Shown piece by piece: positions 2,895 to 20,546 of a stretch of DNA of 64,000 bases. The position numbers and the translations under genes are program-made. Every line of letters starts with the position of its first letter. Positions within the stretch are counted from its first letter, which is position 1. Below the pieces are notes generated by a model. That model was given only the letters and a program-made list of their open reading frames with translations. It made no database searches and was not told the origin of the DNA. This DNA is from Clostridia bacterium (GTDB lineage: Bacteria; Bacillota; Clostridia; TANB77; CAG-508): the NCBI GenBank assembly GCA_017625465.1, contig JAGAKS010000017.1:156946-220945 (forward strand). Direction: 5' to 3'.

Positions 2895-2910
2895 CTCATA
2901 ACCCGAAGGT
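2895..2910. repeat. left copy of 16-bp direct repeat CTCATAACCCGAAGGT (att core)
   Basis: identical 16-mer recurs at 20531-20546; the two copies bracket an integrase-bearing region. Confidence 0.65.
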
Positions 2911-2939
2911 CGTAAGTTCGAGTCTTACCCCCGCAACCA
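2895..2939 (+). tRNA. 3' half of initiator tRNA-fMet (anticodon CAU) - fragment only, no 5' half; forms the left att repeat
   Basis: CTCATAACCCGAAGG = anticodon loop (C-U-CAU-A-A) with three C of the anticodon stem; then GTAAG-TTCGAGT-CTTAC T-arm, CCCCGCA acceptor 3' strand, discriminator A and CCA; near-identical to E. coli tRNA-fMet 3' half. Upstream sequence cannot pair as D-arm/acceptor 5' strand. Confidence 0.75.
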
Positions 2940-2950
2940 AGAAATTAACT

Positions 2951-2988
2951 AGAGTCGCAAGAGATTGCAGACTCTTATTTTTTTGACC
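2951..2988 (+). terminator. rho-independent terminator immediately after the tRNA fragment
   Basis: agagtc...gactct stem followed by TTATTTTTTT. Confidence 0.65.
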
Positions 2989-3028
2989 TTGACGTAATTT
3001 TGACGTAAATGGGGACAGCTTGGGGACA
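2989..3028. promoter_or_regulatory. candidate integrase/Xis arm-type binding repeats (2x TTGACGTAA, 2x GGGGACA)
   Basis: TTGACGTAA at 2989-2997 and 3000-3008; GGGGACA at 3011-3017 and 3022-3028; GGGGACA also occurs twice near the other end (20393-20399, 20404-20410). Confidence 0.35.
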
Positions 3029-3132
3029 CAAGCTTTTATAAAGCTCATAAAATAGCATAAATCCTCATTTATAATATTAAAAAAAGCAATTTTTGAACTT
3101 ATTGAAATCAAGAGTTTTAGCTGATAAGTATG

Positions 3133-4335
3133 TTAGTTTTTATCTACTAATAAATTTTGCAAGACTATACCTGCACTTCTATTATGAGAAGCAAGTGGAT
3201 GGACATAGAAATTAAATGTTGTGCTAATTTGAGCATGTCCTAATCTTGCAGCTACAACTGCTACATCAACATTTTGTGAAATAAGTAGAGTAGCATTTGT
3301 ATGTCTGATACCATGAAAATTCAAATAAGGTAGTCCTATCTTTTGAACAAATTTAACAAACCATTTACTTACTGTATCAGGATGCATAGGTTTGCCATTA
3401 TCTTGTATAAATAATCTATTAGATTCTTCCCAGAATTCACCACAAAGATCTTTTTGACTATCATACCATATTTTATATTCCTCTAGTATTTCGATGACAG
3501 AATCAGGTATAGAAATATGTCTAAAAGAACTAGGTGTTTTAGGTGGTTTTGTATAAACTCCTGTACTTGCTAAATATTGACTTGATTTGTTTACAGTTAT
3601 TTCTTTATTCTTGAAATCAATATTTTCCCAGTCAAGTCCCATTAATTCACCTAATCTAACTCCAGTAAATACTGTAAGAATAATAGCAACCTTATACTTC
3701 ATCTCATTCTCTGCAAGCTCATTTAATCCTTTTAGAAGAACTTTGCATTGTTCATCATCATAGAATCTACGTTGAGCTTTTGGTGCTCTTGGTGGTTGAA
3801 CTCTTTCAGCGGGATTATAAGGTATAAGTTGCCAATATACAGCTTTGTGTAGCATTGCACTTATTAATCTATGATGTTCTAGAATAGTCTTTTTTGATAA
3901 TGGTTTTAAAGTACGTTCACCATTGTTTTTAGCAAGTCTTTTTATTTGTGTATCTTGTTCTAGCATATCATATAATTTCATAAGATTTGTAGGTTTGATT
4001 TTTTCTAAAGTAAAAGAACCTAAGTAAGGAAGAATTCTGCTCTCTAACATTCCAACATATCTGTTATAAGTAGATGGTGCTAAATCTTTTGTGCCATAGT
4101 TTACTTGCCATATATGATAGAATTCTTCAAAAGTTACTGGTTTTCCTTCAGGTACTAATCCACGATTAGCTTCTGTAACAAACTCTGCAAGTGCAATCTC
4201 AGCGTCTTTACGAGTTCCGTGAATAGTTTTTGTTCTTCTAGCTCTAGATCCATCAAGATTTTTACCAGTAGATACTACTAACCTATAAGTATTTTCACCT
4301 CTTTTTTCAATACTCCCAGCCATTGCCTTTTTCAC
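3133..4335 (-). CDS. int: tyrosine site-specific recombinase (phage-type integrase) with N-terminal arm-binding domain
   Basis: C-terminal HGIRHT...LGHAQISTTFNFYVH (R..H-x-x-R...Y catalytic pattern), N-terminal AP2-like arm DNA-binding region, 400 aa. Confidence 0.9.
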   Translation of the reverse strand: MKKAMAGSIEKRGENTYRLVVSTGKNLDGSRARRTKTIHGTRKDAEIALAEFVTEANRGLVPEGKPVTFEEFYHIWQVNYGTKDLAPSTYNRYVGMLESRILPYLGSFTLEKIKPTNLMKLYDMLEQDTQIKRLAKNNGERTLKPLSKKTILEHHRLISAMLHKAVYWQLIPYNPAERVQPPRAPKAQRRFYDDEQCKVLLKGLNELAENEMKYKVAIILTVFTGVRLGELMGLDWENIDFKNKEITVNKSSQYLASTGVYTKPPKTPSSFRHISIPDSVIEILEEYKIWYDSQKDLCGEFWEESNRLFIQDNGKPMHPDTVSKWFVKFVQKIGLPYLNFHGIRHTNATLLISQNVDVAVVAARLGHAQISTTFNFYVHPLASHNRSAGIVLQNLLVDKN

Positions 4336-4596
4336 CTCCTTTCAGGCATAACCATGGGTGAGAGTTTCATATTTAATTGTGATTATTATATATCAAAATA
4401 TTGATGATTACTAGTGGATTTTGCTTATTTTTCAAGTATTACAAAGATTACAGTATAATTCATAAAAGAACTTATATAAAACAATAAAAAACTAGATAAA
4501 ATGTAATATTAGATTAAAATGTCGTAAAAAGTCGAATTATATCAGAAAAAAGATATTACAAATGTTTACTCATATATGGATAAAAAAGGAAAAATA

Positions 4597-4605
4597 TGTT
4601 ATAAT
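4597..4605 (+). promoter_or_regulatory. extended -10 promoter element (TGTTATAAT) upstream of the KAP NTPase gene
   Basis: TGnTATAAT match, weak -35 TGGATA 17 bp upstream. Confidence 0.4.
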
Positions 4606-4620
4606 TTCTGTATCACAAAA

Positions 4621-4655: not shown

Positions 4656-4670
4656 TTATAGGAGATGAAA

Positions 4671-7600
4671 ATGAAAAAGTTATTATTGAAAATAAAAAGA
4701 ATTGCACTTATGGAGATAAGTTTTAAGAAAAGAAAACAAAATAACAAAATAGAGGGAAATAACAACTCTGTTGTTTATATAAATAAACCTATAAATGAAA
4801 TAAATAATGATGTGCTAGGAATAAATACACACTTAAATAGAATCGACAAAGCAATAGATAAAGGTGCAAATGTTATAGGAATAATAGGAGATTATGGTAC
4901 AGGTAAATCAAGCCTAATAGAATTATTAAAAAATAAGTATGAAAAACCTATTATGATAAATATGTGGAACTATTCTAATGCAAATAGTAATGAAGATGAT
5001 GGAATAAATGGTCTTACAAGAAATTTTTTATTTCAAATGGCTATAGGTGAAGATACAAAATTTGCTCAATATGTAAATAAAAAATTAAGTAAAAATTATG
5101 GGATTTTATCTATAATTAAATCTGGAGAAAAATTTTGGCGTAATTTTATACCTGCAATTGTTTTTTGGATAATATATAAAATTGGAGAAACATTTCCAAA
5201 TAGTATATATGATACAGCTGCATACAAATCACTTAATAATGCATATGGTGCAAACTTTTTTCCAGACGGATTATGGCAAAATATAATATATGTTTTGTAT
5301 GGATTTGTAGCTAATTTTTATATAATATTTGCTTTAGTAGCTTTGTTCTTTGCAATAAAAGCAATTCTAAAAACAACAATAGTTTTTTCTTTATGGGATT
5401 CTCAAGGGAAAAGATGTCCAGATGCAACTGATATATATGATATATATCTAGAAGTTGCTCAAAGAATATTAAAAGGTAAAAATAAAAGAATTGTCATAAT
5501 TGAAGATTTGGATAGAATTAATGATATAGAAAAAATAAAAGAATTTATAAAGGAAATCTATAGATTTAATAATGTATTGCCTGAAAACTTAAAAAATAAA
5601 CTAGTGTATGTGATTGAAGTTAAATCAGAAGAGGCTATGAGTATTATAGAAAACCAAATAGAAGAAGTGAATATAGACAAATTATTTAAAAAAGTTTTTT
5701 ATTTTAAAGTATTATTAAATCCAATTCATAATATGGATTGCGATGAAATAGTTTTGGATTTGCTTAAGAATCAAGAAGAAAGGATAAATAAACAATTAGG
5801 CATAAAACTAGGGAATACACTACCTGAAGAATTTGCGTATATTGTCAAGGGAACAAATTTAACAATTAGAGATTTGAAAGATAGATTAAATAGAAGTTTC
5901 GAAATATATGAAAATCTAGATGAGAAAGGGAAAAAGACGGGTGCAATTATTGATTTTAGAAAATGTACAATTGTAGCTTATTTAGAAAGCAAATATCCAC
6001 AAAGTATTAGAAAGTTTGTAACTGAAGAAGAATACTTCAAAAATCTTCTAAATAATTCATATGTCATTAAGCAAATGCCAAATGTGTCATTAACAGATAA
6101 AAAAGATAGAATAAAAAAACTAATAGATATAAAAATAGATGATGATTTTAAGGATGAAGTAGCTAATTTAATAGCAAATGATCTAATTAATGATGATTTC
6201 AGACTGTATTTTTATAATTACCCTAAAGGTCAGAAAATAAAAAGCAGTGAAGAAGAATATGTAGAACGATTACTATTATATCCAAGCAAAAATGAAGAAG
6301 TAGATGAAGAGAAAATTAAAAAAGCGCTAAAGGAAGATAGCAACATAGTTTACAAATGTTTGGATAGAAGAAGAAAAGAAAATTTATTGTTTGATAGAAC
6401 AATATTTGAAAGTGAGACTTTGTATTCAATAGCAATAAAATTCTTCTATGATAAAGTACAGGAATTATTACAAAAAGATATAAAATGGAAATCTGAATAT
6501 AGAAATGAATCAGGAAGAGTTTTAAATAAAATATCTAAATATAATGTGGATTCAAAGAATCTTTTTGAAGAATATTCAAAGTTTTTAACTAAAGAATTTA
6601 AGCAACTGTCTGAAAAAGAGTTAATAGGTGCAAGGGCAGAGATAATAAAAAATTCCAATGAGTATATTACATGTTTTAAGTCTATATTTATAAATGATGA
6701 TATTAGTTTAATATCGAAAGAAGAAATAGATTTAATAGAAGATATTGGCATTGTAATGCAATTGGTAAATACAGATGCAATAGATGAAAAAAATGCAGAA
6801 TATATAATAAATATACTAAATGCTAATAAATTATCAGATGAGAATTTTATATGTGCAAAAGAAATATATTATTCTATGGATGAAACCGTAGAATTGGAAA
6901 GCATTGCTCATAGTTTATTAGATTTTCTAATGATAAATAATAAAACTGATGATCTATTATTCAAAAATGTTGTAAACAATTATTTGAGTACTGATTCAGA
7001 AATAGAAGAAATAGAGATAGTTAAGTATTTAAATTTATTAGATATTAATGATATTACAGAAGAATATCTAAATAATATTGATTTATTGAAGATAACTGAA
7101 GAATTGTCAGAAGATATACTAAATAAGTTAAAGGAAAATGGATTAAAACATACATTATGGATAAATTTAATTATACAAGATAGATGTAATGAAGTAGACT
7201 TAAGTGAAAATTATGAAGAAAATTTAAAAATTATTTCAGAAATATCTGATGTATTAGATGATAGTATAATAAATCTAAGAAAAGAATTAATAAGTAAAAA
7301 TTTATCAAATGAATATAAAGAACTGTTTTTTGATGATTATCCTATAATTACACCTGAAGAATTGGGAATGTTAGATACTATTGGAGGTATTATTAATTTA
7401 ACGAATTTTAATAAAGTTGATATTAATAATTTAAATGGTATTGTTAATAAAATTAATAATCTATATTCAACAGGAGAAGAATTAATAGAAATTATAGGTG
7501 TATTTGATAAGAAAGAAAATAGTATTTCAGATATAAATATAACAAATAAATTTTTTGATATATTTGAATGGAATAAAGACCTAGTAAAAATGCTAACAGA

Positions 7601-8351
7601 AGATCAGAGAAGTTATATATATAATGTTTTAAAGAACAATTTAAGACTGACTGACTATAACTATGAAATAAAATTTTCACATAAAATAGGTTATATTATA
7701 ACTGAAATAGATAATGAATTATATATAAAGGCTAAAAATGATATAAATTGTTATGAACAGTATATGGAATTAGTAAATCAATTGGATATACCAACAGAAC
7801 AAACTATAACCAATATAATAAACTTTAATAGCGAATATAAACTTAATATTAATATAACGAATTATTTATGGAGCAAAGGATATTATACAGAAAGTATAAT
7901 AGGAAGAGTTCTTTTTGAAAATAGTATTAATGTTAAGTTGGCCAAGGAATCATTAAACCTATATGCAGAGGCATATAATAAAACAGAAAAAGCACATGAT
8001 ATAATGGCTAGTAATGATGAATTTATACAGTTAATGATGGATAATGAGAATTATAAAGAATTTAAGACAAAGAAAAAATTAGAACCTTTCTATAGATTAA
8101 GACAGCCTATAACATTTGTAAAACATGTTTTTGAAACTTTAGAAGAAACAGACATATATGAATATTTAAAATGCAGTTGGCATTTAGATACAGAAGAAGA
8201 TAGTGAAAAATTTCAAAGATTGATTTGTGAAGATAGGTATATAAAGTTTATAGAAAGTTCTGAAATGTATAATATTGTTTGGGAGAAATTATGGAAAACA
8301 TCTCATAAAGGATTATTAACAAAGGCAAGAAATAAAAGATACAATAATTAA
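4671..8351 (+). CDS. KAP-family P-loop NTPase with transmembrane insert and ~800-aa C-terminal extension (1226 aa)
   Basis: Walker A GDYGTGKSS; two to four hydrophobic helices (IPAIVFWIIY..., IYVLYGFVANFYIIFALVALFFAIKAIL) inserted before the Walker B RIVIIEDLDR (hhhhDDLDR KAP signature); start at second ATG (4671) with RBS spacing. Confidence 0.75.
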   Translation: MKKLLLKIKRIALMEISFKKRKQNNKIEGNNNSVVYINKPINEINNDVLGINTHLNRIDKAIDKGANVIGIIGDYGTGKSSLIELLKNKYEKPIMINMWNYSNANSNEDDGINGLTRNFLFQMAIGEDTKFAQYVNKKLSKNYGILSIIKSGEKFWRNFIPAIVFWIIYKIGETFPNSIYDTAAYKSLNNAYGANFFPDGLWQNIIYVLYGFVANFYIIFALVALFFAIKAILKTTIVFSLWDSQGKRCPDATDIYDIYLEVAQRILKGKNKRIVIIEDLDRINDIEKIKEFIKEIYRFNNVLPENLKNKLVYVIEVKSEEAMSIIENQIEEVNIDKLFKKVFYFKVLLNPIHNMDCDEIVLDLLKNQEERINKQLGIKLGNTLPEEFAYIVKGTNLTIRDLKDRLNRSFEIYENLDEKGKKTGAIIDFRKCTIVAYLESKYPQSIRKFVTEEEYFKNLLNNSYVIKQMPNVSLTDKKDRIKKLIDIKIDDDFKDEVANLIANDLINDDFRLYFYNYPKGQKIKSSEEEYVERLLLYPSKNEEVDEEKIKKALKEDSNIVYKCLDRRRKENLLFDRTIFESETLYSIAIKFFYDKVQELLQKDIKWKSEYRNESGRVLNKISKYNVDSKNLFEEYSKFLTKEFKQLSEKELIGARAEIIKNSNEYITCFKSIFINDDISLISKEEIDLIEDIGIVMQLVNTDAIDEKNAEYIINILNANKLSDENFICAKEIYYSMDETVELESIAHSLLDFLMINNKTDDLLFKNVVNNYLSTDSEIEEIEIVKYLNLLDINDITEEYLNNIDLLKITEELSEDILNKLKENGLKHTLWINLIIQDRCNEVDLSENYEENLKIISEISDVLDDSIINLRKELISKNLSNEYKELFFDDYPIITPEELGMLDTIGGIINLTNFNKVDINNLNGIVNKINNLYSTGEELIEIIGVFDKKENSISDINITNKFFDIFEWNKDLVKMLTEDQRSYIYNVLKNNLRLTDYNYEIKFSHKIGYIITEIDNELYIKAKNDINCYEQYMELVNQLDIPTEQTITNIINFNSEYKLNINITNYLWSKGYYTESIIGRVLFENSINVKLAKESLNLYAEAYNKTEKAHDIMASNDEFIQLMMDNENYKEFKTKKKLEPFYRLRQPITFVKHVFETLEETDIYEYLKCSWHLDTEEDSEKFQRLICEDRYIKFIESSEMYNIVWEKLWKTSHKGLLTKARNKRYNN

Positions 8352-8354
8352 AAA

Positions 8355-8392
8355 TAAGTAGAGTCCATTTGGATTCTACTTATTTTTTGCTC
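8355..8392. terminator. bidirectional terminator between convergent KAP NTPase gene and 292-aa gene
   Basis: aagtagagtcc/ggattctactt imperfect inverted repeat flanked by A/T runs. Confidence 0.5.
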
Positions 8393-9254
8393 TATTTTTA
8401 TAAACATTTGCTTTATTCTTACATTGAGGAGTATGATATTCTGCTTTAGGATTAACAGCAAGAAAAGCTTTATTACAGAATTTACATATCTTTAATAGAT
8501 TAATATCTTGTGCTACTGTTTTAGCAAAGTAATAATCGATATATTGTTTTAAACAGGTGATTTGAAATTCAACAACTAAAGTTTCTTTTCTAGATAAACT
8601 CATTTTAATATTGTTAATTTCAAATTGTTTTAATAATTCATCTATATTGTAATTATCTTCATTAGAAATATTATTTAATAAACTATATAAGTATTTAGCA
8701 TATTGAATAAACATATCTAGAGGTTCACAATATAAATTAGATCCTGCTAATAATTTATTTACATCATATAACATATATTTTTCCATGGCAGGAGTTTCAG
8801 CTAATTTAATTGCGGCATTTATTAATTCCTTAATCTGACTATCATCACAAGTAGGGAAGAACAATTTAAAATATTTCTTTCTATCTACTACTGTTGTTAA
8901 ATCAGAATTTCCAATATAGTTATAATCTTTTAAAACTATTTTATTATCTAAGAAAAAGTATTTATTTAAAGGTAAATCGTTTATTAATCCTAATGTAGAA
9001 TATTTATTTACAAAGTCTAAAACACTTTTTTCTATATCATTTTCGTTATAAAAAGCTAATTTACCAATATTTAATAAATCTATTAAAATAGATTCTTCAA
9101 AATCTTTTTCTATATCAATTAATGGAGCACCACTAGAGTGCTTTTTATTTATACTATCTGAAACTATATATTTAGTTTTGCTTATTTCTTTAATTTCATA
9201 TTTAGCAAATTTAAAAATATTTTTTCCTTCAAATGCACTAAAATTAAGGCTCAT
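8376..9254 (-). CDS. hypothetical protein (292 aa) with C-terminal Cys/His cluster, convergent partner of KAP NTPase
   Basis: long ORF with strong RBS (AGGAGG); C-terminal CKFCNKAF...HTPQCKNKANVYKNRAK suggests zinc-ribbon; no other motif recognised. Confidence 0.5.
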   Translation of the reverse strand: MSLNFSAFEGKNIFKFAKYEIKEISKTKYIVSDSINKKHSSGAPLIDIEKDFEESILIDLLNIGKLAFYNENDIEKSVLDFVNKYSTLGLINDLPLNKYFFLDNKIVLKDYNYIGNSDLTTVVDRKKYFKLFFPTCDDSQIKELINAAIKLAETPAMEKYMLYDVNKLLAGSNLYCEPLDMFIQYAKYLYSLLNNISNEDNYNIDELLKQFEINNIKMSLSRKETLVVEFQITCLKQYIDYYFAKTVAQDINLLKICKFCNKAFLAVNPKAEYHTPQCKNKANVYKNRAKNK

Positions 9255-9509
9255 ACGAATACCTCCTAAAAAATTATAAAAAATTTACAGTAAGCCCTTG
9301 ACAAACATAATAGATTACTGATATATTTTAACCAGAGTAAGTGATTATTACACAAAATCAATTACAGAAGTAAAAACCAGTCAAGACCTGACTTTTAAGT
9401 AAAATTACAGCATAAAACAAGTAATTGATTACTTACAATAATAGCTTACCACACAAAAGATAAGTTGTCAACAAAGAAGATAAAATTTCAAAAGAAAGGA
9501 GGAATGTAT

Positions 9510-9707
9510 ATGGAATTTCAGGAAGTCAAAAGAATAACTCTAACAATGAGAGAAGCAGCAGACTATTTAGGAATATCATATTGGTTAATTAATCAATTGG
9601 TTAAGAAAAAACAAATACCATATTCAAAAGTAGGCGGCAAGTTCTTGTTTAGAGTAAAAGCACTGGATGAATATCTATGTGAAAAAGAACGAGCTTCAGT
9701 AAGATAG
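9510..9707 (+). CDS. xis: excisionase / AlpA-MerR-type HTH DNA-binding protein
   Basis: LTMREAADYLGIS...LVKKKQIPYSKVGGKFLF helix-turn-helix of the excisionase (HTH_17) type; start at ATG after AAGGAGG. Confidence 0.65.
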   Translation: MEFQEVKRITLTMREAADYLGISYWLINQLVKKKQIPYSKVGGKFLFRVKALDEYLCEKERASVR

Positions 9708-9723: not shown

Positions 9724-10200
9724 ATGGTTGAAGTTCATTGGTTTAAGATACAGGCAGATATATTTGACAATGAAAAAATTAAAAAACTACTTAATAGTAG
9801 GGATGGGGACACCTATTGTAGAGTATGGTTTCAACTATTAGCATTAGCTGCAAAGTGTAATGCACATGGAGCAGTTCTACTTGGTGAGAATATTCCAATA
9901 ACAATAGATGATCTTGCAAGAATTATGAACAAGACAGTAAACAAGCTTGCAACGATCATGCAACAACTAGTGAATCTTCACATGATATTCGTAGAAGATG
10001 GAACAATCTATATTAAAAATTGGGATGTTTACCAAAATCTTGATAAGCTCGAAAAAATCAAGGAAGACAACAGGAAAAGACAGCAAAGATTTAGAGATAA
10101 ACAAATGATAAATAACGTTACTGTAACGTTAGATAACGCAGAAGATAAGAATAGAGAAGAAAAGATTAGAATAGAAAATGATAGTGGTTTTAAAGACTAA
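9724..10200 (+). CDS. phage replisome organizer N-terminal domain protein
   Basis: WFKIQADIFDNEKIKKL...YCRVWFQLLALAAKCNAHGAVLL matches the replisome-organizer N-terminal pattern; strong RBS. Confidence 0.6.
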   Translation: MVEVHWFKIQADIFDNEKIKKLLNSRDGDTYCRVWFQLLALAAKCNAHGAVLLGENIPITIDDLARIMNKTVNKLATIMQQLVNLHMIFVEDGTIYIKNWDVYQNLDKLEKIKEDNRKRQQRFRDKQMINNVTVTLDNAEDKNREEKIRIENDSGFKD

Positions 10201-10235
10201 AAAAGCAATTTTTAATTATGAAAGGAGAAATTTAT

Positions 10236-11048
10236 ATGATAAGTACAAGAACAATTAAAAGAGAAAAATGTAAATTCTGTGGAAAGGAATTAGAACAAAA
10301 GACAATGAGTTTTATAGTAGGAGATAGAGAGTTCGTTCTATCAGGAGAACCTGTAAGATGTGACTGCATGAAAGCAAAGATATATTGGAAAAAGGTTGAT
10401 GATAGAAGAGCTGCAATAGAATATAAAAGGGAGTATAACAGAAAGATGATGCTAAGAAAGAGATATTACTTAAATAGCAAAATGAACAAAAGATTAATGG
10501 AATATAATTTTGAAAATTATATGACTAATAATGACAATAGAATGGCTTATGAAAAGTCAAAAAGGTATGCAGAGAATTTTGTAAAAGGTGATAATAAAGG
10601 AAGCTTATTTATAACTGGAGGAGTTGGAACAGGTAAAACACATTTAGCAGCTAGTATTGCAAATTACTTAATAGAAAATGAAATACCAGTTATATTTGGA
10701 ACACTAATAACTTTACTAAATGATATAAAGGACACTTACAAAATTGATGGCGATTGTGAGAGTGATGTTATTGAAAAATATTCAAAGATTCCATTGTTAA
10801 TAATTGATGATTTGGGTAAAGAAAGACCTAGTGAATGGACATTAGAAAAGCTATTTACAATAATAAATAATAGATACGAAAACAATTTACCAATAATAAT
10901 TACAACAAATTATAACAAGGAAAAGTTAAGAAAAAGACTTTTATGTAATAGCAATGAAGAAATAGTAGATTCTATAATATCAAGACTTTATGAAATGTGT
11001 AGAGGAATAATCATCTTTGGAAAAGACAAAAGAAAAGAGTTAGTATAA
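10236..11048 (+). CDS. DnaC/IstB-like AAA+ ATPase (helicase loader) with N-terminal Cys cluster
   Basis: Walker A GGVGTGKTHLA, Walker B LLIIDDLGKE, sensor region TTNY; N-terminal CKFCG...RCDC. Confidence 0.75.
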   Translation: MISTRTIKREKCKFCGKELEQKTMSFIVGDREFVLSGEPVRCDCMKAKIYWKKVDDRRAAIEYKREYNRKMMLRKRYYLNSKMNKRLMEYNFENYMTNNDNRMAYEKSKRYAENFVKGDNKGSLFITGGVGTGKTHLAASIANYLIENEIPVIFGTLITLLNDIKDTYKIDGDCESDVIEKYSKIPLLIIDDLGKERPSEWTLEKLFTIINNRYENNLPIIITTNYNKEKLRKRLLCNSNEEIVDSIISRLYEMCRGIIIFGKDKRKELV

Positions 11049-11493: not shown

Positions 11494-11616
11494 TAAGGAA
11501 TAATGCCTGAATTTTTGAAACAAATTTGGGCATTTCCTTCCATATTTTAGTTATAAGTTATGTATCAGCAAGCAATGAATTTCTGTAGCTCGAAATTCAA
11601 AATGGGGAAATTCCCC
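11494..11616. promoter_or_regulatory. candidate oriT / relaxase promoter region with inverted repeats
   Basis: imperfect hairpin AAGGAATAATGCC...GGGCATTTCCTT (11494-11539) and perfect 13-bp palindrome GGGGAAATTCCCC (11604-11616) immediately upstream of the relaxase start. Confidence 0.4.
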
Positions 11617-11649
11617 AAGCCCCTTTTTATTTTTAGAAAGGAGAAAATT

Positions 11650-12651: not shown

Positions 12652-13026
12652 ATGCAAAAAGAAGTAAAGAAAATGGAATTCTATTCAGAACAGATTAGAT
12701 TTATGTGTAAATATAAGTTGGAAACAACAGATGCAGTAGATGAGCTAAAAACTAAGAAACTTAGAGAAAAACAAATAATACTAAATAAAAGAAACAAATT
12801 ATATTATCACAGAAATAAGTGCAATAATGAGGAAGATAAGGATTCTATTACTAAAGATATTATTCTTGTTACAGATATGCTGAAGAAAGTAAAGAAGGAA
12901 ATAAAACTATGTGATGTAATTTATAATAATGCTCCAGAAATGAAACAGCAAATTAAAGAGGTGGAAGATAAGGAACTGGAAAAGGAGCAAAAACAAAAGA
13001 GAAAAACAAAGAGTTATGAATTGTAA
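12652..13026 (+). CDS. Lys/Glu-rich coiled-coil protein, same frame as relaxase (possible C-terminal relaxase segment or MobC-like accessory)
   Basis: in the same frame as 11650-12483 with no other stop between 12484 and 12651. Confidence 0.4.
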   Translation: MQKEVKKMEFYSEQIRFMCKYKLETTDAVDELKTKKLREKQIILNKRNKLYYHRNKCNNEEDKDSITKDIILVTDMLKKVKKEIKLCDVIYNNAPEMKQQIKEVEDKELEKEQKQKRKTKSYEL

Positions 13027-13153
13027 AATAGGCACAGAAATGTGCCTATTTTACATACGCATAAAAAATGCATAATATATATATTAAATACGTATAAAAA
13101 TGTTGACATGAAATCATTTTATTTATATAATACAAAAAGAGAGGTACAAAAGT

Positions 13154-13324
13154 ATGAAAGTAAATAAAAAGGGAAGACCAAAAGGTATAAAAAAAGATGA
13201 AAGATTACATGTGATGATATCAAGTGATTTGAAAGAAAAATTCCAAAAGAAGGTTGAACAAGAAGGAAGCAATATTTCAGTTAAAACATGTGAATTAATA
13301 TCTAAATATATTGAAAATAATTAA
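13154..13324 (+). CDS. small basic protein, ribbon-helix-helix-like (56 aa)
   Basis: MKVNKKGRPKG...RLHVMISSDLKEKFQKKVEQEG pattern (beta-strand then two helices) typical of CopG/Arc regulators; RBS GAGAGG; not in ORF track. Confidence 0.35.
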   Translation: MKVNKKGRPKGIKKDERLHVMISSDLKEKFQKKVEQEGSNISVKTCELISKYIENN

Positions 13325-13346
13325 CTAAAAAGAGAAGAGGTATAAT

Positions 13347-14147
13347 ATGGGAACAAATATATATGATGAAAGAAATACAGTAAATGACCTTACAGGTTCA
13401 GAATGGAAATTCAGCACAAAAACAGTTATTAATAAGGCTTATCCTATAAATATGCAACATAAGTTAAGATCGGAACATGGAGGTCAAAAACCACCAGAAT
13501 TATGTGCTGATATCATAAAAATTTTTACTAAAAAGGGAAATTTAATTTTAGATCCTTTTATGGGAGTGGGTGGTACACTACTTGGCGCAAGTCTTACAGA
13601 TAGAAATGCTATAGGAATAGATATAACGAAAAGATGGATAGATATTTATAAAGAAGTTAGTAAATTAGAAAATTTAAAGGAACAAAAAACAATACTAGGT
13701 GATTCTCTAAAAAAATTAGATAAAATAGAAAATGATTCAGTAGATTTTATACTAACAGATGTACCATATTGGAATATCGATACATTAAAGCAAACAAGGA
13801 ACAAGAAAATAAAGCAATCTAAACTTAATAATTTTGACAATGATACGCAAAATCAGACAAAAGAAGAATGGCTACAGCAAATGTATGATATAATATATAA
13901 AGCATCTAGAAAATTAAAAATTGGAAAATACATGGCTATATTTATAGGAGATATGTATAGAGATAAAGAATATCATTTTTTATCTGCTGAACTAGCTATG
14001 AAAATAAATGAGGCAGAAGATTTGAAGATGAAATCCAATATTATTTGGGTAGACAACAGCAAATCATTACATGTTTTTGGATATCCTAGAGCATATGTAC
14101 CATCGATGATACATCAAAATATATTAGTTTTTAGAAGAGAGGAATAA
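13347..14147 (+). CDS. DNA methyltransferase, N4-cytosine/N6-adenine family (variant DVPY motif IV)
   Basis: HGGQKPPEL followed by AdoMet motif DPFMGVGGT, then TDVPYW in place of canonical (D/S/N)PPY. Confidence 0.7.
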   Translation: MGTNIYDERNTVNDLTGSEWKFSTKTVINKAYPINMQHKLRSEHGGQKPPELCADIIKIFTKKGNLILDPFMGVGGTLLGASLTDRNAIGIDITKRWIDIYKEVSKLENLKEQKTILGDSLKKLDKIENDSVDFILTDVPYWNIDTLKQTRNKKIKQSKLNNFDNDTQNQTKEEWLQQMYDIIYKASRKLKIGKYMAIFIGDMYRDKEYHFLSAELAMKINEAEDLKMKSNIIWVDNSKSLHVFGYPRAYVPSMIHQNILVFRREE

Positions 14148-14150
14148 AAT

Positions 14151-16049
14151 ATGAGTAGTTTATTACCTAAGAATGAATATAAATTTAAAAATTTAGAAAA
14201 AGAAGAATATGAAAATGGTAAGGTATTTTATTTTTATTGTGATAACTTACAAGAAGGAATGCATATTTTGTTTTGGCTAGAAGAGTATAATAAAGAGATG
14301 AAATTAATAAAAAGAGGGTATAATGGTATATCTAATTATATATCTATTTATGATATAAATGGAGAAAAATATACAATTATAATTTGCTCTTTTTATCATA
14401 ATGGTGAATTGCCACGATTAGTTAGACAAATAATATATAAAATAGATAAACCTGATGTAGTAATATATTCACAAGATGAGGATAAAATAGTATGTGGAAT
14501 TGAAAATACAGAGACTGGATTTGTTGGAAATGCGACATGGCAAAGACATGGAAGAATAATGAATTTTTTAGGTAATGATTTTCCTTTTGTATTTTTTGCT
14601 TATTATTCTAAAAAAGATATTTCACAAGATACAATCAGAAAACCAAGCCCATTACTAGTTTTATCATTTTTTTCATTATCTATCGAATATTCAACACCTG
14701 CAATATTATCATTATATGATCACGAAGATATAACACAAAATATAATAAATGATGATGGCTCAAAAATGATTGATACAAGAAAAGAATCTTTGAGCTATAT
14801 ATTAAGCTTGATGCTGCATGGACAGGACGCAGATGAAACACAAGAAAAATTAAAAAAATGTTTTTACGATATGAAATATTATTATAAAGAAGAAATAAAA
14901 AGAGTTAAGAATAATGAATTACCTTTAAAAACATTAGAATTATTGAGAAAAGATAATTTTGAAGATGAAATCGTAGAAAAAATCATAAAGAAAGATAAAA
15001 ATTATCCATTGTTCTTTAAAGATATATCTCCATGGAACCCAGTATCAGCAAAAGAATTTAAAATAAATAATGAAAAAGTTGGAATAGGTGAATATATAAA
15101 AAATCAATTATATGATATTGATTTTTATCAATTATCACCTAAATGTCCAGTTGGAATTACTTTTGACACAAATAAATTGGTTACTAGATTAAATGAAATA
15201 AAAAATACAGGTGATTATTTTTGGGAAGATTCTTTAAGATTAGATATTCCAACTATAATTATATTATTAAAGCTTACTAAAAAAGGAAAATTAGCATTAC
15301 CAGATCCATACAATGGTAGAATTCCAGCTTTTTATGAGCTTTATAAACAATCTTTTGGAGAAATTAATTGTATTATATATTTAATGGATCATTCAAGCGA
15401 AAATGAATATGATCCAGCTTATGCAAAAAATATGAAAATATATAAGTCGATTAATGATTATGCTACAATTTTTCTAGATAGAGATTTAAATGTACTTGAT
15501 AAAAATTGCGATAAAGCAGTAAAGGACTCTAGAAAAAAATATGAAGAAGAAATAACAGAAGATAATGTTACATGTTTTTTTGAAACAATACTCAAAATGG
15601 AAAACATAAAGCCTTCATTTATAAATCCACCATGTGGTTCTTGGTCTGATTTTAAATTATATCCTATAAATAAATTTTTCTATTTAAAAAGAGATGATGA
15701 TAGGCCAGATATTGCATATTATATTCCTAAAAATCAACAACTATACTTTAATGATGGCATATATTATGTAGGAGAAAGTAAAGCAAACTATTCATCATTT
15801 AAAAATGATGAAAAATTCAATTTTGAAATAGAGAGAATTAATAGATTAATTGAAATTATAGACAAAGAAATAGGTATAGATTTAAAATATAAATCATTTA
15901 TATTATTTAAAGGAATTGCAGAAGTGGGAATAGAAATAGTAAATGAAGTACGTGAAGGTAAGAAAAAACATGTGGATTATGTTGTGGTTATTGAAGAAGA
16001 CAATGAGAATATAGAATATAATATTAGGATGATTATATTAGAGGTATAA
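14151..16049 (+). CDS. hypothetical 632-aa protein, putative restriction endonuclease (possible PD-(D/E)xK: KPD-x8-DEDK)
   Basis: tightly packed between two methyltransferases (4-nt and 1-nt gaps); KPDVVIYSQDEDKIV resembles PD...(D/E)xK; otherwise no motif. Confidence 0.35.
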   Translation: MSSLLPKNEYKFKNLEKEEYENGKVFYFYCDNLQEGMHILFWLEEYNKEMKLIKRGYNGISNYISIYDINGEKYTIIICSFYHNGELPRLVRQIIYKIDKPDVVIYSQDEDKIVCGIENTETGFVGNATWQRHGRIMNFLGNDFPFVFFAYYSKKDISQDTIRKPSPLLVLSFFSLSIEYSTPAILSLYDHEDITQNIINDDGSKMIDTRKESLSYILSLMLHGQDADETQEKLKKCFYDMKYYYKEEIKRVKNNELPLKTLELLRKDNFEDEIVEKIIKKDKNYPLFFKDISPWNPVSAKEFKINNEKVGIGEYIKNQLYDIDFYQLSPKCPVGITFDTNKLVTRLNEIKNTGDYFWEDSLRLDIPTIIILLKLTKKGKLALPDPYNGRIPAFYELYKQSFGEINCIIYLMDHSSENEYDPAYAKNMKIYKSINDYATIFLDRDLNVLDKNCDKAVKDSRKKYEEEITEDNVTCFFETILKMENIKPSFINPPCGSWSDFKLYPINKFFYLKRDDDRPDIAYYIPKNQQLYFNDGIYYVGESKANYSSFKNDEKFNFEIERINRLIEIIDKEIGIDLKYKSFILFKGIAEVGIEIVNEVREGKKKHVDYVVVIEEDNENIEYNIRMIILEV

Positions 16050-16050
16050 T

Positions 16051-17073
16051 ATGAAATATATAGGTAATAAATCTAGGTTAATTGGATTCATTGAAGAGTG
16101 CTTAAAAGATTTTAATATTAATTATAATAATTGTAAGGTTTATGACTTGTTTTCAGGAACAGGAAGTGTTAGTGAATTTTTTTTGAAAAATGATTGTAAA
16201 GTGTTATCATGCGATAATATGAATTATGCTATAGCAGAACAATATAGAAGACTATATTTTAGAAAAGAGCCTATATTTAATGAATTGAAAAATATAATTG
16301 GATATGAAAAATTAGATGATATATTAAAGTATTTGAATAGTTTAGAAGGAAATGAAGGATATTTTTTTGAAAATTTCTGTGAAGAAGGAAAATATAAAAG
16401 AAGATTTTTTAGTAGCTCAAATGCAAAAAAAATAGATGCTATAAGAAATAAAATAGACGAATGGAAAGATATATTGCCTTATGAAAAATATATTTTTTTA
16501 GTTGGTATTTTAATGAATTCAGCAGATTTTGTTTCAAATACTGCTGGTACATATGGTGCATATTTAAAAATATGGAGAAGTATGGCGCTAAAAGAATTAA
16601 AACTTGAAAAACCAGAGTTTATTAATAGTGGAGAAATCAAGATGTATATCAGTGATGTTATTGATTTTGTAAAAGAACAAAACAAAGCAGATATTGTATA
16701 TCTTGATCCACCATATAATACAAGACAATATCCTGCATATTTTAGTGTTCTTGAAAGCATTGTTGTAAATGATAATCAAGTTTTAAATGGAAAAACGGGA
16801 TTAAGAAATTATGAGAAACAAAAATCTAAATTTTCAATAAAAAAAGATGTAAAAGAGGAATTTGAAAAGCTTATTAACAATATTAAATCAGATTATATTG
16901 TGATGAGTTATAGTACAGAGGGAATATTAGATTCAAATTTTATAATGGAAGTGTTAAAAAGAAAAGGTAAGACAAAGATGTATAATACATCTTATAGAAG
17001 ATTTAAAACTAATGCATGGACAGAAAAGAATACAAATCTAAAAGAAATATTATTTATATGTAAAGTATTATAG
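16051..17073 (+). CDS. Dam-like (D12 class) N6-adenine DNA methyltransferase
   Basis: N-terminal YIGNKSRL, AdoMet motif DLFSGTGSV, catalytic DPPY. Confidence 0.8.
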   Translation: MKYIGNKSRLIGFIEECLKDFNINYNNCKVYDLFSGTGSVSEFFLKNDCKVLSCDNMNYAIAEQYRRLYFRKEPIFNELKNIIGYEKLDDILKYLNSLEGNEGYFFENFCEEGKYKRRFFSSSNAKKIDAIRNKIDEWKDILPYEKYIFLVGILMNSADFVSNTAGTYGAYLKIWRSMALKELKLEKPEFINSGEIKMYISDVIDFVKEQNKADIVYLDPPYNTRQYPAYFSVLESIVVNDNQVLNGKTGLRNYEKQKSKFSIKKDVKEEFEKLINNIKSDYIVMSYSTEGILDSNFIMEVLKRKGKTKMYNTSYRRFKTNAWTEKNTNLKEILFICKVL

Positions 17074-17082: not shown

Positions 17083-18357
17083 ATGGAAGAATTAGATACA
17101 AAGAAAGTATTTACAGATACAAAAGATTATCCATTAAGCATAATTAAAGAAATGTTTGATGACGGAGATATAATCCCACAACCAGATTATCAAAGAGATT
17201 ATATTATGGATGAGAAAAAAGCATCAAAATTAATTGAATCTGTTTTATTACAAATACCAATTCCTACGGTTTATCTTTGTGAAGAAAGTGATGGTACACT
17301 ATCTATAATAGATGGACAACAAAGACTAACTTCATTTGTGAAATTTCTAAAAAATGAATTTGCTTTAAAAAACTTAGAAGAATATACCGATTTTAATGGA
17401 AAAAGATTTGCAGATTTAGATAAGGCAGTTCAAAGAACAATAAAAAATACAAGTATTCATTCAATAGTTATAAAAAAAGAATCACAAGAACTAAAATATG
17501 AAATATTTGCAAGATTAAATCAAGGTTCTACAAGTTTAAAGCCACAAGAATTAAGAAATTGTATATATAGAGGTAGCTTTAATAATATGCTAGAAGATAT
17601 TTCAGAAAGCAATAAGACACTAGCTTTTCTTATAGGAACTGAAAATAAGAGAAAAAACTATCAGGAAACAATATTAAGATATTTTGCATTAAAGAATTTT
17701 CAAGAATATAGCAGTTCAATATCTAAAACATTAAACTTGTATATGGAAAAACATCAAAATGACTCAAAAGAAGATATTGATCAATTTAAGAAAGAATTTA
17801 ATTCAAATATAGATATTATTAAACAAGTGCTTGGAGAAGATGCATTTTTTGGATATGATAGAACAAAAGGAAAAATGATGAATAAGTTTAGTGGCTCTAC
17901 ATACGATTCAATTATTATTGGATTTTCTATGTTTAACAATCATGATATCATGGTGCATTCAGATGAAATAAGACAAAGAATAAAAGAAATGAAAATGAAT
18001 GATCCAGAATATCAAGATTATACATATGCTGCAACAGGTTCAAAAGTTAGAGTTATTGGAAGAATTATGAAAGTATATGAATTACTTTCTCAAATTATTG
18101 GTAAAAAAGGTGATTATGGAGTAGAAAGAACATTTTCCAAAGAAACAAAGGAAGACCTATGGCATGAAGGCTATATTTGTTCATATTGCGGAAATGAAAT
18201 ATTAAGTATGGATGATGCAGAAGTTGATCATATAGAGGCATTTGTATCTGGAGGAGAGACAATTAAAGAAAATGCACAATTGCTTCATAGACATTGTAAT
18301 AGAGAAAAACATGATAATGACGTAGAGTTTGAAAATGAAGAAGAATTAGAAAACTAA
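17083..18357 (+). CDS. DUF262 (ParB-like, DGQQR) + C-terminal HNH nuclease; GmrSD-like type IV restriction-type protein
   Basis: IIDGQQRLTSF DUF262 hallmark; C-terminal CSYCG...VDHIEAF...HRHCNREKHD HNH motif. Confidence 0.75.
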   Translation: MEELDTKKVFTDTKDYPLSIIKEMFDDGDIIPQPDYQRDYIMDEKKASKLIESVLLQIPIPTVYLCEESDGTLSIIDGQQRLTSFVKFLKNEFALKNLEEYTDFNGKRFADLDKAVQRTIKNTSIHSIVIKKESQELKYEIFARLNQGSTSLKPQELRNCIYRGSFNNMLEDISESNKTLAFLIGTENKRKNYQETILRYFALKNFQEYSSSISKTLNLYMEKHQNDSKEDIDQFKKEFNSNIDIIKQVLGEDAFFGYDRTKGKMMNKFSGSTYDSIIIGFSMFNNHDIMVHSDEIRQRIKEMKMNDPEYQDYTYAATGSKVRVIGRIMKVYELLSQIIGKKGDYGVERTFSKETKEDLWHEGYICSYCGNEILSMDDAEVDHIEAFVSGGETIKENAQLLHRHCNREKHDNDVEFENEEELEN

Positions 18358-18365
18358 ATTGAAAC

Positions 18366-18417
18366 AAAAGCAAAATAGGTTTGGAAACAGACATTTCCTA
18401 CATTATTTTGCTTTTTT
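18366..18417 (+). terminator. rho-independent terminator after the 4-gene operon
   Basis: aagcaaaata...tattttgctt stem followed by TTTTTTT. Confidence 0.5.
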
Positions 18418-18476
18418 TATACAAATTTCGACAAATTTCTTGAAAAAAATATTGTAAAATATGAAAGGAGGTAAAA

Positions 18477-19976
18477 ATGAAATCTATTAATCTTAAGGCA
18501 TTAGTAAATATATATTTAGCAAATAACAGGGAAATTCCTAAAGAATATCAACAATTTATAGGAGATGACTATAGTTTATCAATAAAGAAGAATGAAATAG
18601 AACCACTTGTGCAACTTGTAGAAAATATAGAGAAAATTGATATTCAAGGAAATATGAATAAATATAATCATTTTTATATAGGGTATCAAATTCCACAGAT
18701 TGGTAAAGAATTTGATTTATTAAGATTTGATGAACAAAACATATTAAATATTGAGTATAAAAGAGAAATTAAAGATTTAGAAAAAATAAAAAAACAATTA
18801 ATAAGAAATAAGTACTATCTAAGTTTTTTAAATAGAAACAGTATTTTAATAGGATATATACAAGATATGGACAAATTATTTCTATTAAAGAATGAAGAAT
18901 TAGAGGAAATATCATATATAAAGTTATTAGAAATTTTGAATGATTGCTTAACTTGTGAAGATATAAATCTTAATACTTTATTTAAAGCATCAAATTATTT
19001 AATTTCGCCATTTAATAAAACCAATGAATTTATGAATGGTCAGTATTTTTTAACAAAGCAACAAGAAGAAATAAAAAATAAAATGATTGAAGATATGCAT
19101 CTAGGAGAAAAAACTTTTTTGATTCAAGGAGATGCTGGAACAGGGAAAACATTATTAATATATGATTTGGCAAAACAATTACTTGAAAATGATAAGCAAG
19201 TTGCTATTATACATTGTGGACAGCTTAATCAAGGACATGAAAAATTAAAGGCTATATATAATTGGCATATATTTTCGATAAGAGATTATTATATTGTAAC
19301 GAATAATACATTTGATGTCATATTTATAGATGAAATACAAAGAATAAAAATGGACCAATTTGAAGAAATAATGGAATATATTAGGAAAAATAAAAATATA
19401 GTAATTTGCAGTGGAGATAAAAAACAAATTTTAAAAGCAACGGAAGGAGGTATATTAGAGAAGCTAGAAAGCCAAACTTTGAACAAATATACATTATCAA
19501 AAAAAATACGAACTAATAAGGAACTGGCTAATTTTATAAAGGTAGTTTTAGATTTAAATAAAAAACAAGAATTCAATCTGAATACGGATAATATAAATAT
19601 AGTATATTGTAATAATTATTTAGAAGCAAATAGATATATTTCTTCCAAAAATAGTTATAGTTTTATATCATATACGCCTACTTTGTATCCAGAAAATGGT
19701 TTAGTTGGATTTGAAATAACTTGCGAAAACAAAAATACGGTTGGAAATCCCCACAAAGTAATTGGACAAGAATTTGAAAATGTAGGAGTAATTATAGATA
19801 AGCATTTTTATTATGATGAGAATAATAAATTAAGAGCTATGCAAATGTATAATAATGTATATTCGCCTAAAAATATGTTATATCAGGCTTTAACTAGAGT
19901 AATTGAGACATTAGAAATAATTGTTGTAGAAAATATAGAAATATTTAATATTTTAATAGAGCTATTCAAAAAATAA
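18477..19976 (+). CDS. NERD/PD-(D/E)xK-like N-terminal domain fused to DUF2075/SF1-like P-loop ATPase
   Basis: N-terminal FDLLRFDEQNILNIEYK (D...ExK); Walker A GDAGTGKT, Walker B VIFIDEIQ (DEAQ-like box). Confidence 0.5.
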   Translation: MKSINLKALVNIYLANNREIPKEYQQFIGDDYSLSIKKNEIEPLVQLVENIEKIDIQGNMNKYNHFYIGYQIPQIGKEFDLLRFDEQNILNIEYKREIKDLEKIKKQLIRNKYYLSFLNRNSILIGYIQDMDKLFLLKNEELEEISYIKLLEILNDCLTCEDINLNTLFKASNYLISPFNKTNEFMNGQYFLTKQQEEIKNKMIEDMHLGEKTFLIQGDAGTGKTLLIYDLAKQLLENDKQVAIIHCGQLNQGHEKLKAIYNWHIFSIRDYYIVTNNTFDVIFIDEIQRIKMDQFEEIMEYIRKNKNIVICSGDKKQILKATEGGILEKLESQTLNKYTLSKKIRTNKELANFIKVVLDLNKKQEFNLNTDNINIVYCNNYLEANRYISSKNSYSFISYTPTLYPENGLVGFEITCENKNTVGNPHKVIGQEFENVGVIIDKHFYYDENNKLRAMQMYNNVYSPKNMLYQALTRVIETLEIIVVENIEIFNILIELFKK

Positions 19977-19977
19977 A

Positions 19978-20010
19978 AAGGAAATAGAAAAACTATTTCC
20001 TTTTCGTTTT
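19978..20010. terminator. bidirectional terminator
   Basis: ggaaatag-aaaaa-ctatttcc stem followed by T-run. Confidence 0.55.
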
Positions 20011-20301
20011 TTACTCAAAGCATCCCATAACTAACTGAGAACCATCTACAAAGCCGTTTCTATAATATTTCTCATTCCAGTAGCAAAGATAGTCCATAAA
20101 GTTTTTATCAAGTTGATCTAATTGTTTCTGAACATATTTCTTATTTTGTTTTGGCACATTATTCAAAATCTTTTCAGCCAATTCATCAAAATATATACAA
20201 TATTTTTTATCTTGAGGAGTCATATTGCAAAATGCAGTTTCCTCCCTAAATTCTAACCATTCCTTTATAATATCATCATTCACTTCTCTAAAATTATTCA
20301 T
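20011..20301 (-). CDS. hypothetical protein (~96 aa) at right end of island
   Basis: ORF with GGAGG RBS before internal ATG (MNNFRE...); no recognisable motif. Confidence 0.4.
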   Translation of the reverse strand: MNNFREVNDDIIKEWLEFREETAFCNMTPQDKKYCIYFDELAEKILNNVPKQNKKYVQKQLDQLDKNFMDYLCYWNEKYYRNGFVDGSQLVMGCFE

Positions 20302-20530
20302 AAATAAACCTCCAAAATATATAAAAATCAAAATGTCCCCAATTTGCAAATGTATATTTGAACGTCTTGTGCGACAAGACTTTCAAAATCTTGGGGACAG
20401 AAAGGGGACAAAAGTCCACAAAAATGACCTAAAATCGCACAAGAGTTCAGTAAAAGAAAAGTGCTATAAACACTTATATTTCAATAAAAACTAAACATTT
20501 CAATAAACTTCAAAAATGGCTAATTGAATT

Positions 20531-20546
20531 CTCATAACCCGAAGGT
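20531..20546. repeat. right copy of 16-bp direct repeat CTCATAACCCGAAGGT (att core)
   Basis: exact match to 2895-2910; flanking sequence differs on both sides. Confidence 0.65.

Follow-up and report, generated by a model that had tools for sequence, protein, structure and literature searches.

The 64,000-nt stretch of contig JAGAKS010000017.1 from a Clostridia bacterium (GCA_017625465.1), in the following called the window, contains an island at 2895-20546 whose ends are copied from an initiator tRNA, although the insertion site itself is no tRNA gene. An initial annotation of this DNA had described the island as an integrative mobilizable element (IME) with a defence island as cargo. This description is in agreement with our results, since the island combines an integrase (Int) and an excisionase (Xis) with attachment (att) repeats and a relaxase, has no mating pore, and possesses a backbone that recurs elsewhere with other cargo. 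We consider it highly probable that 2895-20546 is one integrated IME copy, belonging to a large family of gut Clostridia, residing at a non-tRNA site and carrying two exchangeable slots for anti-phage genes. In the following, coordinates refer to the window unless a related locus (L number) is named, and features lie on the + strand unless marked otherwise.

The island is bounded by two copies of the sequence CTCATAACCCGAAGGT, both on the + strand, at 2895-2910 (attL core) and 20531-20546 (attR core, a junction also present in L003 and L004). An exact repeat search identified these two copies, and no third copy occurs in the 64-kb window with one mismatch allowed. None of 100 dinucleotide shuffles contained a match, so that the chance expectation is none. 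The identical 16-mers reported to bracket an integrase island were thus recovered as unique in the window, and the integrase, xis, replication genes, relaxase and defence-like genes listed between them were all found where they had been placed. On the left side, the core is separated by 30 nt from the stop codon of a gene for a ygjV-like membrane protein (2364-2864; Pfam Imp-YgjV, 1e-28). On the right side, the sequence following the core is unrelated to tRNA and leads into a host flank (20558-21108) that consists of an extended -10 promoter-like site (20558-20586) and a yqeG-like HAD phosphatase gene (20611-21108). The host promoter TGGTATAAT at 20578-20586, which had been pointed out just to the right of the island, is present ahead of the yqeG-like gene, and with the right core ending at 20546 the insertion does lie directly upstream of it. 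The other 43 kb of the window are ordinary core chromosome, the flanking genes being ArsC and YgjV on one side and YqeG, CinA, AdhE, PFL, MutL, FTHFS and XseA on the other. The GC content was 25.7% in the island and 28.9% in the flanks.

The two ends also share a short motif. GGGGACA is found in seven copies in the window, compared to about one expected, and five of the seven are within the two island ends. Two direct copies are located in the P′ arm (3011 and 3022; 3011-3028) and represent candidate arm-type Int sites, and three are located in the P arm (20334-20410) at 20334 (-), 20393 (+) and 20404 (+). GGGGACA is likely an arm-type integrase site, the pattern being as expected for one element.

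In an initiator-type tRNA-Met(CAT), the 16-mer corresponds to the anticodon loop together with the 3′ strand of its stem and the variable loop, and the same string is found inside intact tRNA genes adjoining related integrases (L049-L052). The left repeat continues inside the element as ...GGTCGTAAGTTCGAGTCTTACCCCCGCAACCA (2895-2939) and ends with CCCCGCAACCA. This element-borne 3′ half of tRNA-fMet in the P′ arm has a length of 45 nt, reaches from the anticodon loop to CCA and matches the corresponding part of the intact L051 tRNA-Met(CAT) with 100% identity. It is followed by a terminator-like hairpin and T-run read from the sequence (2951-2985). The string 'tagagtcgcaagagattg..gactc' after the tRNA half is kept in relatives with an Int ~85-99% identical (L015, L023, L025, L056-L060), and the more distant relatives L039-L052 have a different hairpin at that position.

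A tRNA gene was detected neither in the 64-kb window by ARAGORN (0 genes) nor in positions 1-24000 by an Rfam scan (E<=1). In a shuffle test, no significant similarity to a tRNA 5′ half was found for the 30 nt that separate the ygjV stop codon from the left core. The right copy shares just 16 nt with the tRNA, and the search for a decayed 3′ half to the right of it was not significant, as 1,245 of 2,000 shuffles scored equally well. The tRNA-like sequence is part of the attachment site of the element itself and not a host tRNA gene. Of the earlier proposal that the repeats derive from initiator tRNA-fMet, the part concerning the sequence of the 16-mer therefore stands, and the implied tRNA gene in the window does not.

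Next, the attachment sites of related elements were compared. A total of 3,232 integrase relatives were found at E<=1e-30, and the closest cluster (representative P0001, 99% identical) comprises 1,001 sequences. In all relatives with integrases 70-99% identical, the same tRNA 3′ half lies beside int. In L049-L052, which represent the most abundant relative (Int 70% identical), this half is part of an intact tRNA-Met(CAT), cgcggggtggagcag...tcgggCTCATAA...CCCCGCAACCA. The tRNA has a C1xA72 mismatch and a GGG/CCC anticodon stem, as is typical for initiator tRNAs. In L066, the 5′ part of the tRNA also flanks the integrase P0018.

Other relatives have entirely different sequences on the left side. 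In L039, L041 and L044, a P arm ~96% identical to the P arm of the window (20350-20546) is found to the left of the core, and from their sequence these P-O-P′ junctions are read as tandem arrays of two family members. The left flanks in L015, L023, L056-59, L060 and L065 are of still other kinds, and the identical integrase protein P0018 occurs with at least three different left flanks. The sequences split immediately 5′ of CTCATAA in at least eight independent relative contexts, which is most simply explained by a crossover within the anticodon loop. Evidently, as far as these junctions can tell, the integrase accepts any left arm given the crossover segment and the right half-site (CCCGAAGG...).

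In L025 (11367-12532), L027 (1496-2661) and L042/L043/L046 (~5429-9188), the element adjoins the end of a prophage lysis module at a CTCATAA core. Since relatives adjoin prophages at the same core, phages and IMEs appear to share the att site and to form mixed tandem arrays. In L053 (7880-8500), the tRNA half is cut to CCCCGCAACCA and adjoins a Mob_Pre element with an arm that has two GTCAAGGTAG repeats. L053 looks like a trapped, decaying copy, judging from this truncation.

The contexts of eight relatives were used to draw up the gene order of the family. The conserved order is attL, int, slot 1, a 292-aa or DUF6076 gene (divergent), xis, a gene for a replisome organiser, a DnaC-like gene, TnpV, the relaxase gene, a small gene, slot 2, a 112-aa-like gene and attR. 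Many metagenome contigs contain this backbone in a different chromosomal setting and combined with different defence cargo. A megablast search with the whole island against plasmids and phages gave no match. Slot 1 is located between int and the 292-aa gene, and slot 2 between the relaxase/124-aa genes and the 112-aa gene. In relatives, slot 1 contains a cyclic oligonucleotide-based anti-phage signalling system (CBASS; SMODS, E2 and S_4TM; L015-18) or a 919-aa AAA_23/21 protein (L019), or it is empty. Further relatives carry two unknown proteins of 636 and 774 aa (L023), a protein kinase cassette (L039-48), Gabija-like AAA_15/OLD-TOPRIM and UvrD genes (L070) or a 94% homologue of the 1,228-aa protein found in the window (L053). 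For slot 2, methyltransferases, ThsA_Macro, T5orf172, type I restriction-modification (R-M) systems and others were found, for example ThsA_Macro together with type I R-M in L025, and type I R-M in L053, whose slot 1 holds the KAP homologue.

The backbone genes of the window are as follows. The tyrosine integrase (3133-4323, - strand; Pfam Phage_integrase, Phage_int_SAM_3) has 396 aa from its ATG and an intact catalytic set (R220, H337-x-x-R340, H363, Y373). Its open reading frame (ORF) reaches upstream to a GTG at 4335, and no exact-protein record was found for the resulting 400-aa version, because the real start is the ATG giving 396 aa. The relatives have 396 aa as well, which fixes the start at 4323.

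Divergent from xis lies the gene for a 292-aa protein (8376-9254, - strand) with a C-terminal CxxC...C zinc-ribbon-like motif, for which no match was obtained in PDB, Pfam, NCBIfam, PADLOC or PHROGs. In a profile-profile alignment with DUF6076, whose gene takes the same position in other relatives, no significant match was found, the similarity being a 17-column zinc-ribbon motif with an E of 0.1. The protein had been regarded as the partner of the KAP NTPase in slot 1. This assignment was not confirmed: it is 93-94% identical in L015 and L023 and 96% identical in L070, and since the gene is kept beside CBASS, other or Gabija-like cargo in slot 1, it belongs to the backbone and does not encode a partner of the KAP NTPase. 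In such elements, the regulator gene is usually located there, divergent from xis, and the 292-aa protein is a candidate regulator on this ground.

The excisionase gene is located at 9465-9707 (HTH_17 3e-11, Tn916-Xis 1.5e-5), with a promoter-like site upstream at 9298-9327; its start is probably at 9510, matching relatives of 65 aa. It is followed by the genes for a replisome organiser (Phage_rep_org_N; 9724-10200) and a DnaC/IstB-like loader ATPase (10218-11048), both identified by Pfam and PHROGs, a TnpV-family protein (11134-11490; PF14198, 1e-36) and a MobA/VirD2-type relaxase (11560-12483; PF03432, 8e-40). The relaxase relatives begin at an internal ATG, giving 277 aa. A tblastn search with the relaxase against plasmids resulted in 1,332 records, 949 of them predicted to be mobilizable. 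In relatives with contigs of sufficient length (L015-L017, L025, L026, L070), a MobA-type relaxase likewise follows TnpV. Genes for a type IV secretion system, VirB4 or a type IV coupling protein were not found by Pfam among the island ORFs of at least 50 aa, including the 16 main ORFs.

A 124-aa backbone protein without an assigned function (12652-13026) also follows the relaxase in L017. Just after its gene, a perfect 15-nt inverted repeat is located at 13022-13055, which is the sole strong one near the relaxase. It was considered as an origin of transfer (oriT) and rejected, being absent from all 70 loci; more likely, it is the terminator of the backbone operon. The candidate oriT of the initial annotation accordingly finds no support here, the remaining inverted repeats near the relaxase being weak. 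The conserved gene at the right end (20011-20349, - strand) encodes 112 aa, probably 96 aa. Homologues with 50-61% identity are found just inside the right ends of L005, L012 and L014, and genes of 96/97 aa occupy the same right-end position in L039-L048. AT-rich long hairpins with T-runs, terminator-like in both directions, were observed at 19975-20005 and 8350-8387. They part the convergent pairs AbiO-like/112-aa and KAP/292-aa, at or near the boundaries between cargo and backbone.

From this gene content we infer the following life cycle. Int and Xis would recombine the two 16-nt cores to yield an excised circle, which the replisome organiser and the DnaC-like loader would replicate. The MobA-type relaxase would nick the circle, and a helper conjugative element would provide the mating pore for its transfer. 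In the new cell, Int would join attP to the anticodon-loop region of an initiator tRNA-Met gene, and the 45-nt tRNA 3′ half with the terminator in the P′ arm would rebuild that gene. In addition, Int may use sites that keep the crossover segment and the right half-site, namely ends of family members or prophages, giving tandem arrays, and orphan remnants. The element in the window occupies a site of this kind, which is not a tRNA gene, between the ygjV gene and the promoter of yqeG.

What kind of site this was can be narrowed down by related species. The predicted attB implied by the two junctions is GGTTAG-CTCATAACCCGAAGGT-ATTTTCC. Four related species (L009, L011, L012, L014) have a core with zero or one mismatch ahead of yqeG, preceded each time by element-like non-coding sequence. 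L014 also has a homologue of the 112-aa end gene next to the core, on its element side. L009 and L014 have a common host flank and different element arms, which points to turnover at one site. A decayed 3′ half of tRNA-fMet (~69% identity) comes after the core in L011 (5378-5425), and one of 2,000 shuffles scored as well. This decayed half is located 1.1 kb upstream of ArsC-YqeG, and these two genes are directly adjacent, without ygjV between them. In another species (L032, 534-3788), a ygjV homologue and a second paralogue are followed by a different element, which encodes a relaxase with 36% identity, has a p124-like gene in opposite orientation and lacks a CTCATAA core. For L070, which carries another non-tRNA insertion, the far end was not reached within a 10-kb flank, and no length of a second repeat was obtained.

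A 16-nt piece of tRNA-fMet cannot have arisen by chance in a spacer between two genes. Most likely, to judge from the related loci, the site in the window is a 16-nt remnant of an older tRNA-fMet/element junction. We infer the order of events at the site as follows: an ancestral tRNA-fMet/element junction would have eroded to an orphan remnant that was still att-competent and would then have been re-used repeatedly.

Several points weigh against this reading. First, neither an empty ygjV-yqeG site nor an attP circle was found in the scans of genome, metagenome and viral contigs; the predicted junctions would read AATGGCTAATTGAATT-CTCATAACCCGAAGGT-CGTAAGTTCGAG (attP) and AATAGTAGGTTAG-CTCATAACCCGAAGGT-ATTTTCCCATCTTCC (attB). 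The YqeG scan of genome contigs returned only other species (65-82% identity) with rearranged upstream regions and no clean empty site, and the YgjV scan of metagenome contigs gave homologues without conserved synteny. The exact predicted attB string had 0 matches in metagenome contigs, as had the attP and junction strings in viral contigs. With Int, the viral contigs yielded a single 66% relative, located at the end of a contig and uninformative. Second, the origin of the perfect 16-nt core is deduced indirectly because no unoccupied allele was found, and the right flank in the window shows no tRNA remnant past 16 nt. Third, the attL core of L015 (11385-11429), whose Int is 99% identical to that of the window, is CTCATAAAGCGAAGGT with changes at positions 8-9, and these changes misfit a crossover confined to CTCATAA unless they arose by later mutation. 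Furthermore, no oriT was identified among the inverted repeats near the relaxase, and all defence functions of the island are predicted from sequence.

Exact-protein look-ups with YgjV and YqeG led to the same strain only, with the same junctions (Logan contigs L001 and L002; L003 and L004), the left junction being identical in L001 and L002, which derive from two runs. The contigs of this strain break at L001 4463, L002 2819 and position 1 of L003/L004 (window 2924 and 20442), on the left exactly 30 nt after the start of the tRNA half and on the right within the P arm. Such breaks are as expected if the true tRNA-fMet or sister elements duplicate the arm sequences in the samples.

The failure to find an empty site or a circle, and the same junctions in both independent runs that could be read, would also suit an old arrival that has become immobile and is now a plain chromosomal defence island, the more so as some relatives, L053 among them, have a truncated att site and are clearly trapped. 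This explanation is nevertheless unlikely, since the backbone ORFs are all full length, the Int catalytic residues are intact in a protein 99% identical to the representative of a 1,001-sequence cluster, the two cores are identical with arm repeats on both sides, and tandem junctions elsewhere that look active have arms with 96% identity to this P arm.

The phage-type integrase, Xis, replisome organiser and DnaC-like loader, together with relatives in tandem with prophages on the same att core, could also indicate a phage satellite similar to phage-inducible chromosomal islands, which would be excised and replicated on infection and packaged by a helper phage. Terminase small subunit, capsid-remodelling and packaging genes (terS, cpm/ppi-like) had no PHROGs or Pfam match in the element, however, and a MobA-type relaxase is conserved in the window and in all six relatives named above, which makes a satellite very improbable.

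Refuted for the window, and hence hardly credible, is a canonical island inserted in a functional initiator tRNA gene, with the 16-mers as its duplicated 3′ end: the repeat and the 45 nt starting with it are tRNA-fMet sequence and L049-L052 and L066 are inserted in this way, but the window has no tRNA by ARAGORN or Rfam, the 30 nt after the ygjV stop codon are unlike a tRNA 5′ half, the right copy shares 16 nt with the tRNA where a displaced 3′ half would share ~45, and a misassembly at 2865-2895 is contradicted by the same junction in L001 and L002 from two runs.

For the IME at its non-tRNA site, the cargo was analyzed slot by slot. Slot 1 of the window contains a single gene (4665-8351) encoding a KAP/YobI-type P-loop NTPase of 1,228 aa (PF20693, PF07693). 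A scan of the full-length protein missed both families; when the N-terminal 450 aa were scanned alone, PF20693 was found with 2.6e-9 and 37.5 bits (cut-off 27) and PF07693 with 9.6e-5 and 22.2 bits (cut-off 20), and homologues of the protein carry PF07693. The KAP NTPase of the initial annotation is thereby confirmed above the thresholds. A hydrophobic stretch (~206-245) lies between the Walker A (75-82) and Walker B (276-284) motifs. This split of the Walker motifs by a hydrophobic insert is shared with the KAP/YobI NTPases, of which it is the hallmark, as is the placing among defence genes on mobile elements typical for NTPases of such conflict systems. In contrast to them, the protein of the window has in addition an alpha-solenoid of ~800 aa and no recognisable effector domain. 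The C-terminal 808 aa are all-helical in an AF2 model (pLDDT 90.4) with generic HEAT/ARM-like matches only, and PADLOC gave a weak N-terminal match to PifA only.

We know of no defence activity for the KAP/YobI-solenoid protein family. As a guess, the protein might combine a solenoid sensor, an NTPase switch and a membrane insert in a system of the abortive infection type. The gene behaves as a single-gene cassette in the integrase-proximal slots of different elements (window, L053). That it is a self-contained uncharacterised anti-phage system and that, at the same time, the integrase needs only the 7-nt crossover and one half-site is a combined proposal that we put forward tentatively, as somewhat less likely than not.

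Slot 2 of the window contains three modules. The first is an R-M operon of the BsmI class of type IIS enzymes (13103-17073). It starts with a perfect sigma-70 consensus promoter (TTGACA-17-TATAAT; 13103-13131), followed by a 56-aa ORF with a ribbon-helix-helix look (13154-13324), which heads the operon and may be the R-M controller, the N6_N4-class methyltransferase M1 (13347-14147), the 632-aa endonuclease R (14151-16049) and the D12-class methyltransferase M2 (16051-17073). The 632-aa protein was not matched by Pfam, NCBIfam or PADLOC, and phmmer found no match to any PDB sequence. Two motifs were identified in it, P101-D102-X15-E118-X12-Q131-R132 and P519-D520-X21-E542-S-K544, and the residues D102, E118, Q131, R132, D520, E542 and K544 are invariant in 29 homologues. 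The whole-chain fold was found to be similar to that of BsmI.

The motifs fit to the catalytic motifs PD-X17-E-X12-QR and PD-X17-E-X-K described for BsmI (PMC11889245), which together with Mva1269I represents a class of type IIS enzymes that are monomeric and have two active sites (PDB 9ezd; PMC11889245). The spacers differ, being PD-X15-E and PD-X21-E-X-K in the enzyme of the window compared to X17 in BsmI, and the sequence identity is just 15%. The N6_N4 and D12 methyltransferases lie directly on either side of the 632-aa gene, as an asymmetric site would need. The two-site motifs and the two flanking methyltransferases lead to the assignment as a BsmI/Mva1269I-class type IIS R-M system; judged by motifs and fold, the 632-aa block is an ordinary system of this type with a distant BsmI-class enzyme. 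The enzyme is predicted to use a different active site for each strand when it cuts its asymmetric site, and the methyltransferases are predicted to be a strand-specific pair. Of the 'two methyltransferases flanking a 632-aa unknown' in the initial annotation, the pair is retained and the unknown is replaced by a BsmI-class enzyme.

The second module is a DUF262 (GmrSD_N)-HNH nuclease (17083-18357), confirmed as such by Pfam (GmrSD_N 2e-28, HNH 5e-12) and NsnA-like according to PADLOC (NsnA 2e-76, PD-T4-2_A 8e-48). A Menshen system consists of NsnA, NsnB and NsnC. No NsnB or NsnC match was obtained with PADLOC in the neighbouring ORFs, and the NsnA-like protein alone does not make up a Menshen system. 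Its C-terminal nuclease domain is of the HNH type, compared to DUF1524 in GmrSD. The protein is read as a stand-alone nuclease, probably of the GmrSD-like type IV kind.

The third module is a nuclease-helicase of 499 aa (18477-19976). PADLOC matched it over its full length to AbiO (4.9e-148; residues 1-497 against profile positions 1-467 of 468) and to Nhi (4.9e-142), and Pfam identified SLFN-g3_helicase and AAA_30. On these matches it is assigned as an AbiO/Nhi homologue, which supersedes the 'NERD/DUF2075-like ATPase' suggested before. Outside the island, a 752-aa ORF without a Pfam match at 1e-5 was observed at 31678-33936, directly 3′ of an MMPL-family transporter gene.

The window provides a clean, fully delimited example of a family of IMEs that is very common in human-gut Clostridia and apparently has no name. 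Its members act as carriers with two slots, in which CBASS, Gabija-like, type I and type IIS R-M, Thoeris-like ThsA, AbiO/Nhi, KAP NTPases and unknowns were found. Since the slots hold anti-phage systems, proteins recurring in them are good candidates for new defence genes, and the distant BsmI-class enzyme is a possible scaffold for a nicking enzyme. If the proposed site usage is true, a low-stringency integrase colonises orphan 16-nt tRNA-fMet remnants, prophage ends and ends of sister elements, creating shared 'att hubs' off tRNA genes. A tRNA-targeting integrase family that is often found off tRNA genes matters for island tools that seek tRNA genes.

Integrases that target tRNA genes and carry the 3′ part of the tRNA in attP are classical. 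In the anticodon-loop sublocation class, represented by mycobacteriophage L5, the integrase recombines at the anticodon loop of the tRNA. The family described here has in common with this class the identity block starting from the anticodon loop and the supply of the 3′ half and terminator by the element, as seen in the rebuilt gene of L049-L052. It differs from the L5 type in that the identity at the right end in the window is 16 nt only, the left flank is non-tRNA, and family members are often found at non-tRNA or tandem sites.

Firmicutes IMEs with many defence systems, which form tandems via the att sites of resident elements and prophages, have been described in a Faecalibacterium survey (PMC12084326) and a ciMGE defence survey (PMC10201445). 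The element of the window shares with known Firmicutes IMEs the tyrosine integrase and Xis, a relaxase of its own, the absence of a mating pore, site-specific integration, the tandem accretion at att sites of resident elements or prophages, and cargo that consists mainly of R-M, abortive infection and other anti-phage systems. A named description of a backbone with Phage_rep_org_N, DnaC-like, TnpV, PF03432 relaxase and 292-aa or DUF6076 genes was not found in the literature. In contrast to the known Firmicutes IMEs, the att site of the family is the anticodon-loop region of tRNA-fMet, and the window copy lies outside any tRNA gene. What remains beyond the known systems is the spread and modularity of this unnamed family, its frequent residence at non-tRNA sites and the KAP/YobI-solenoid cargo gene.

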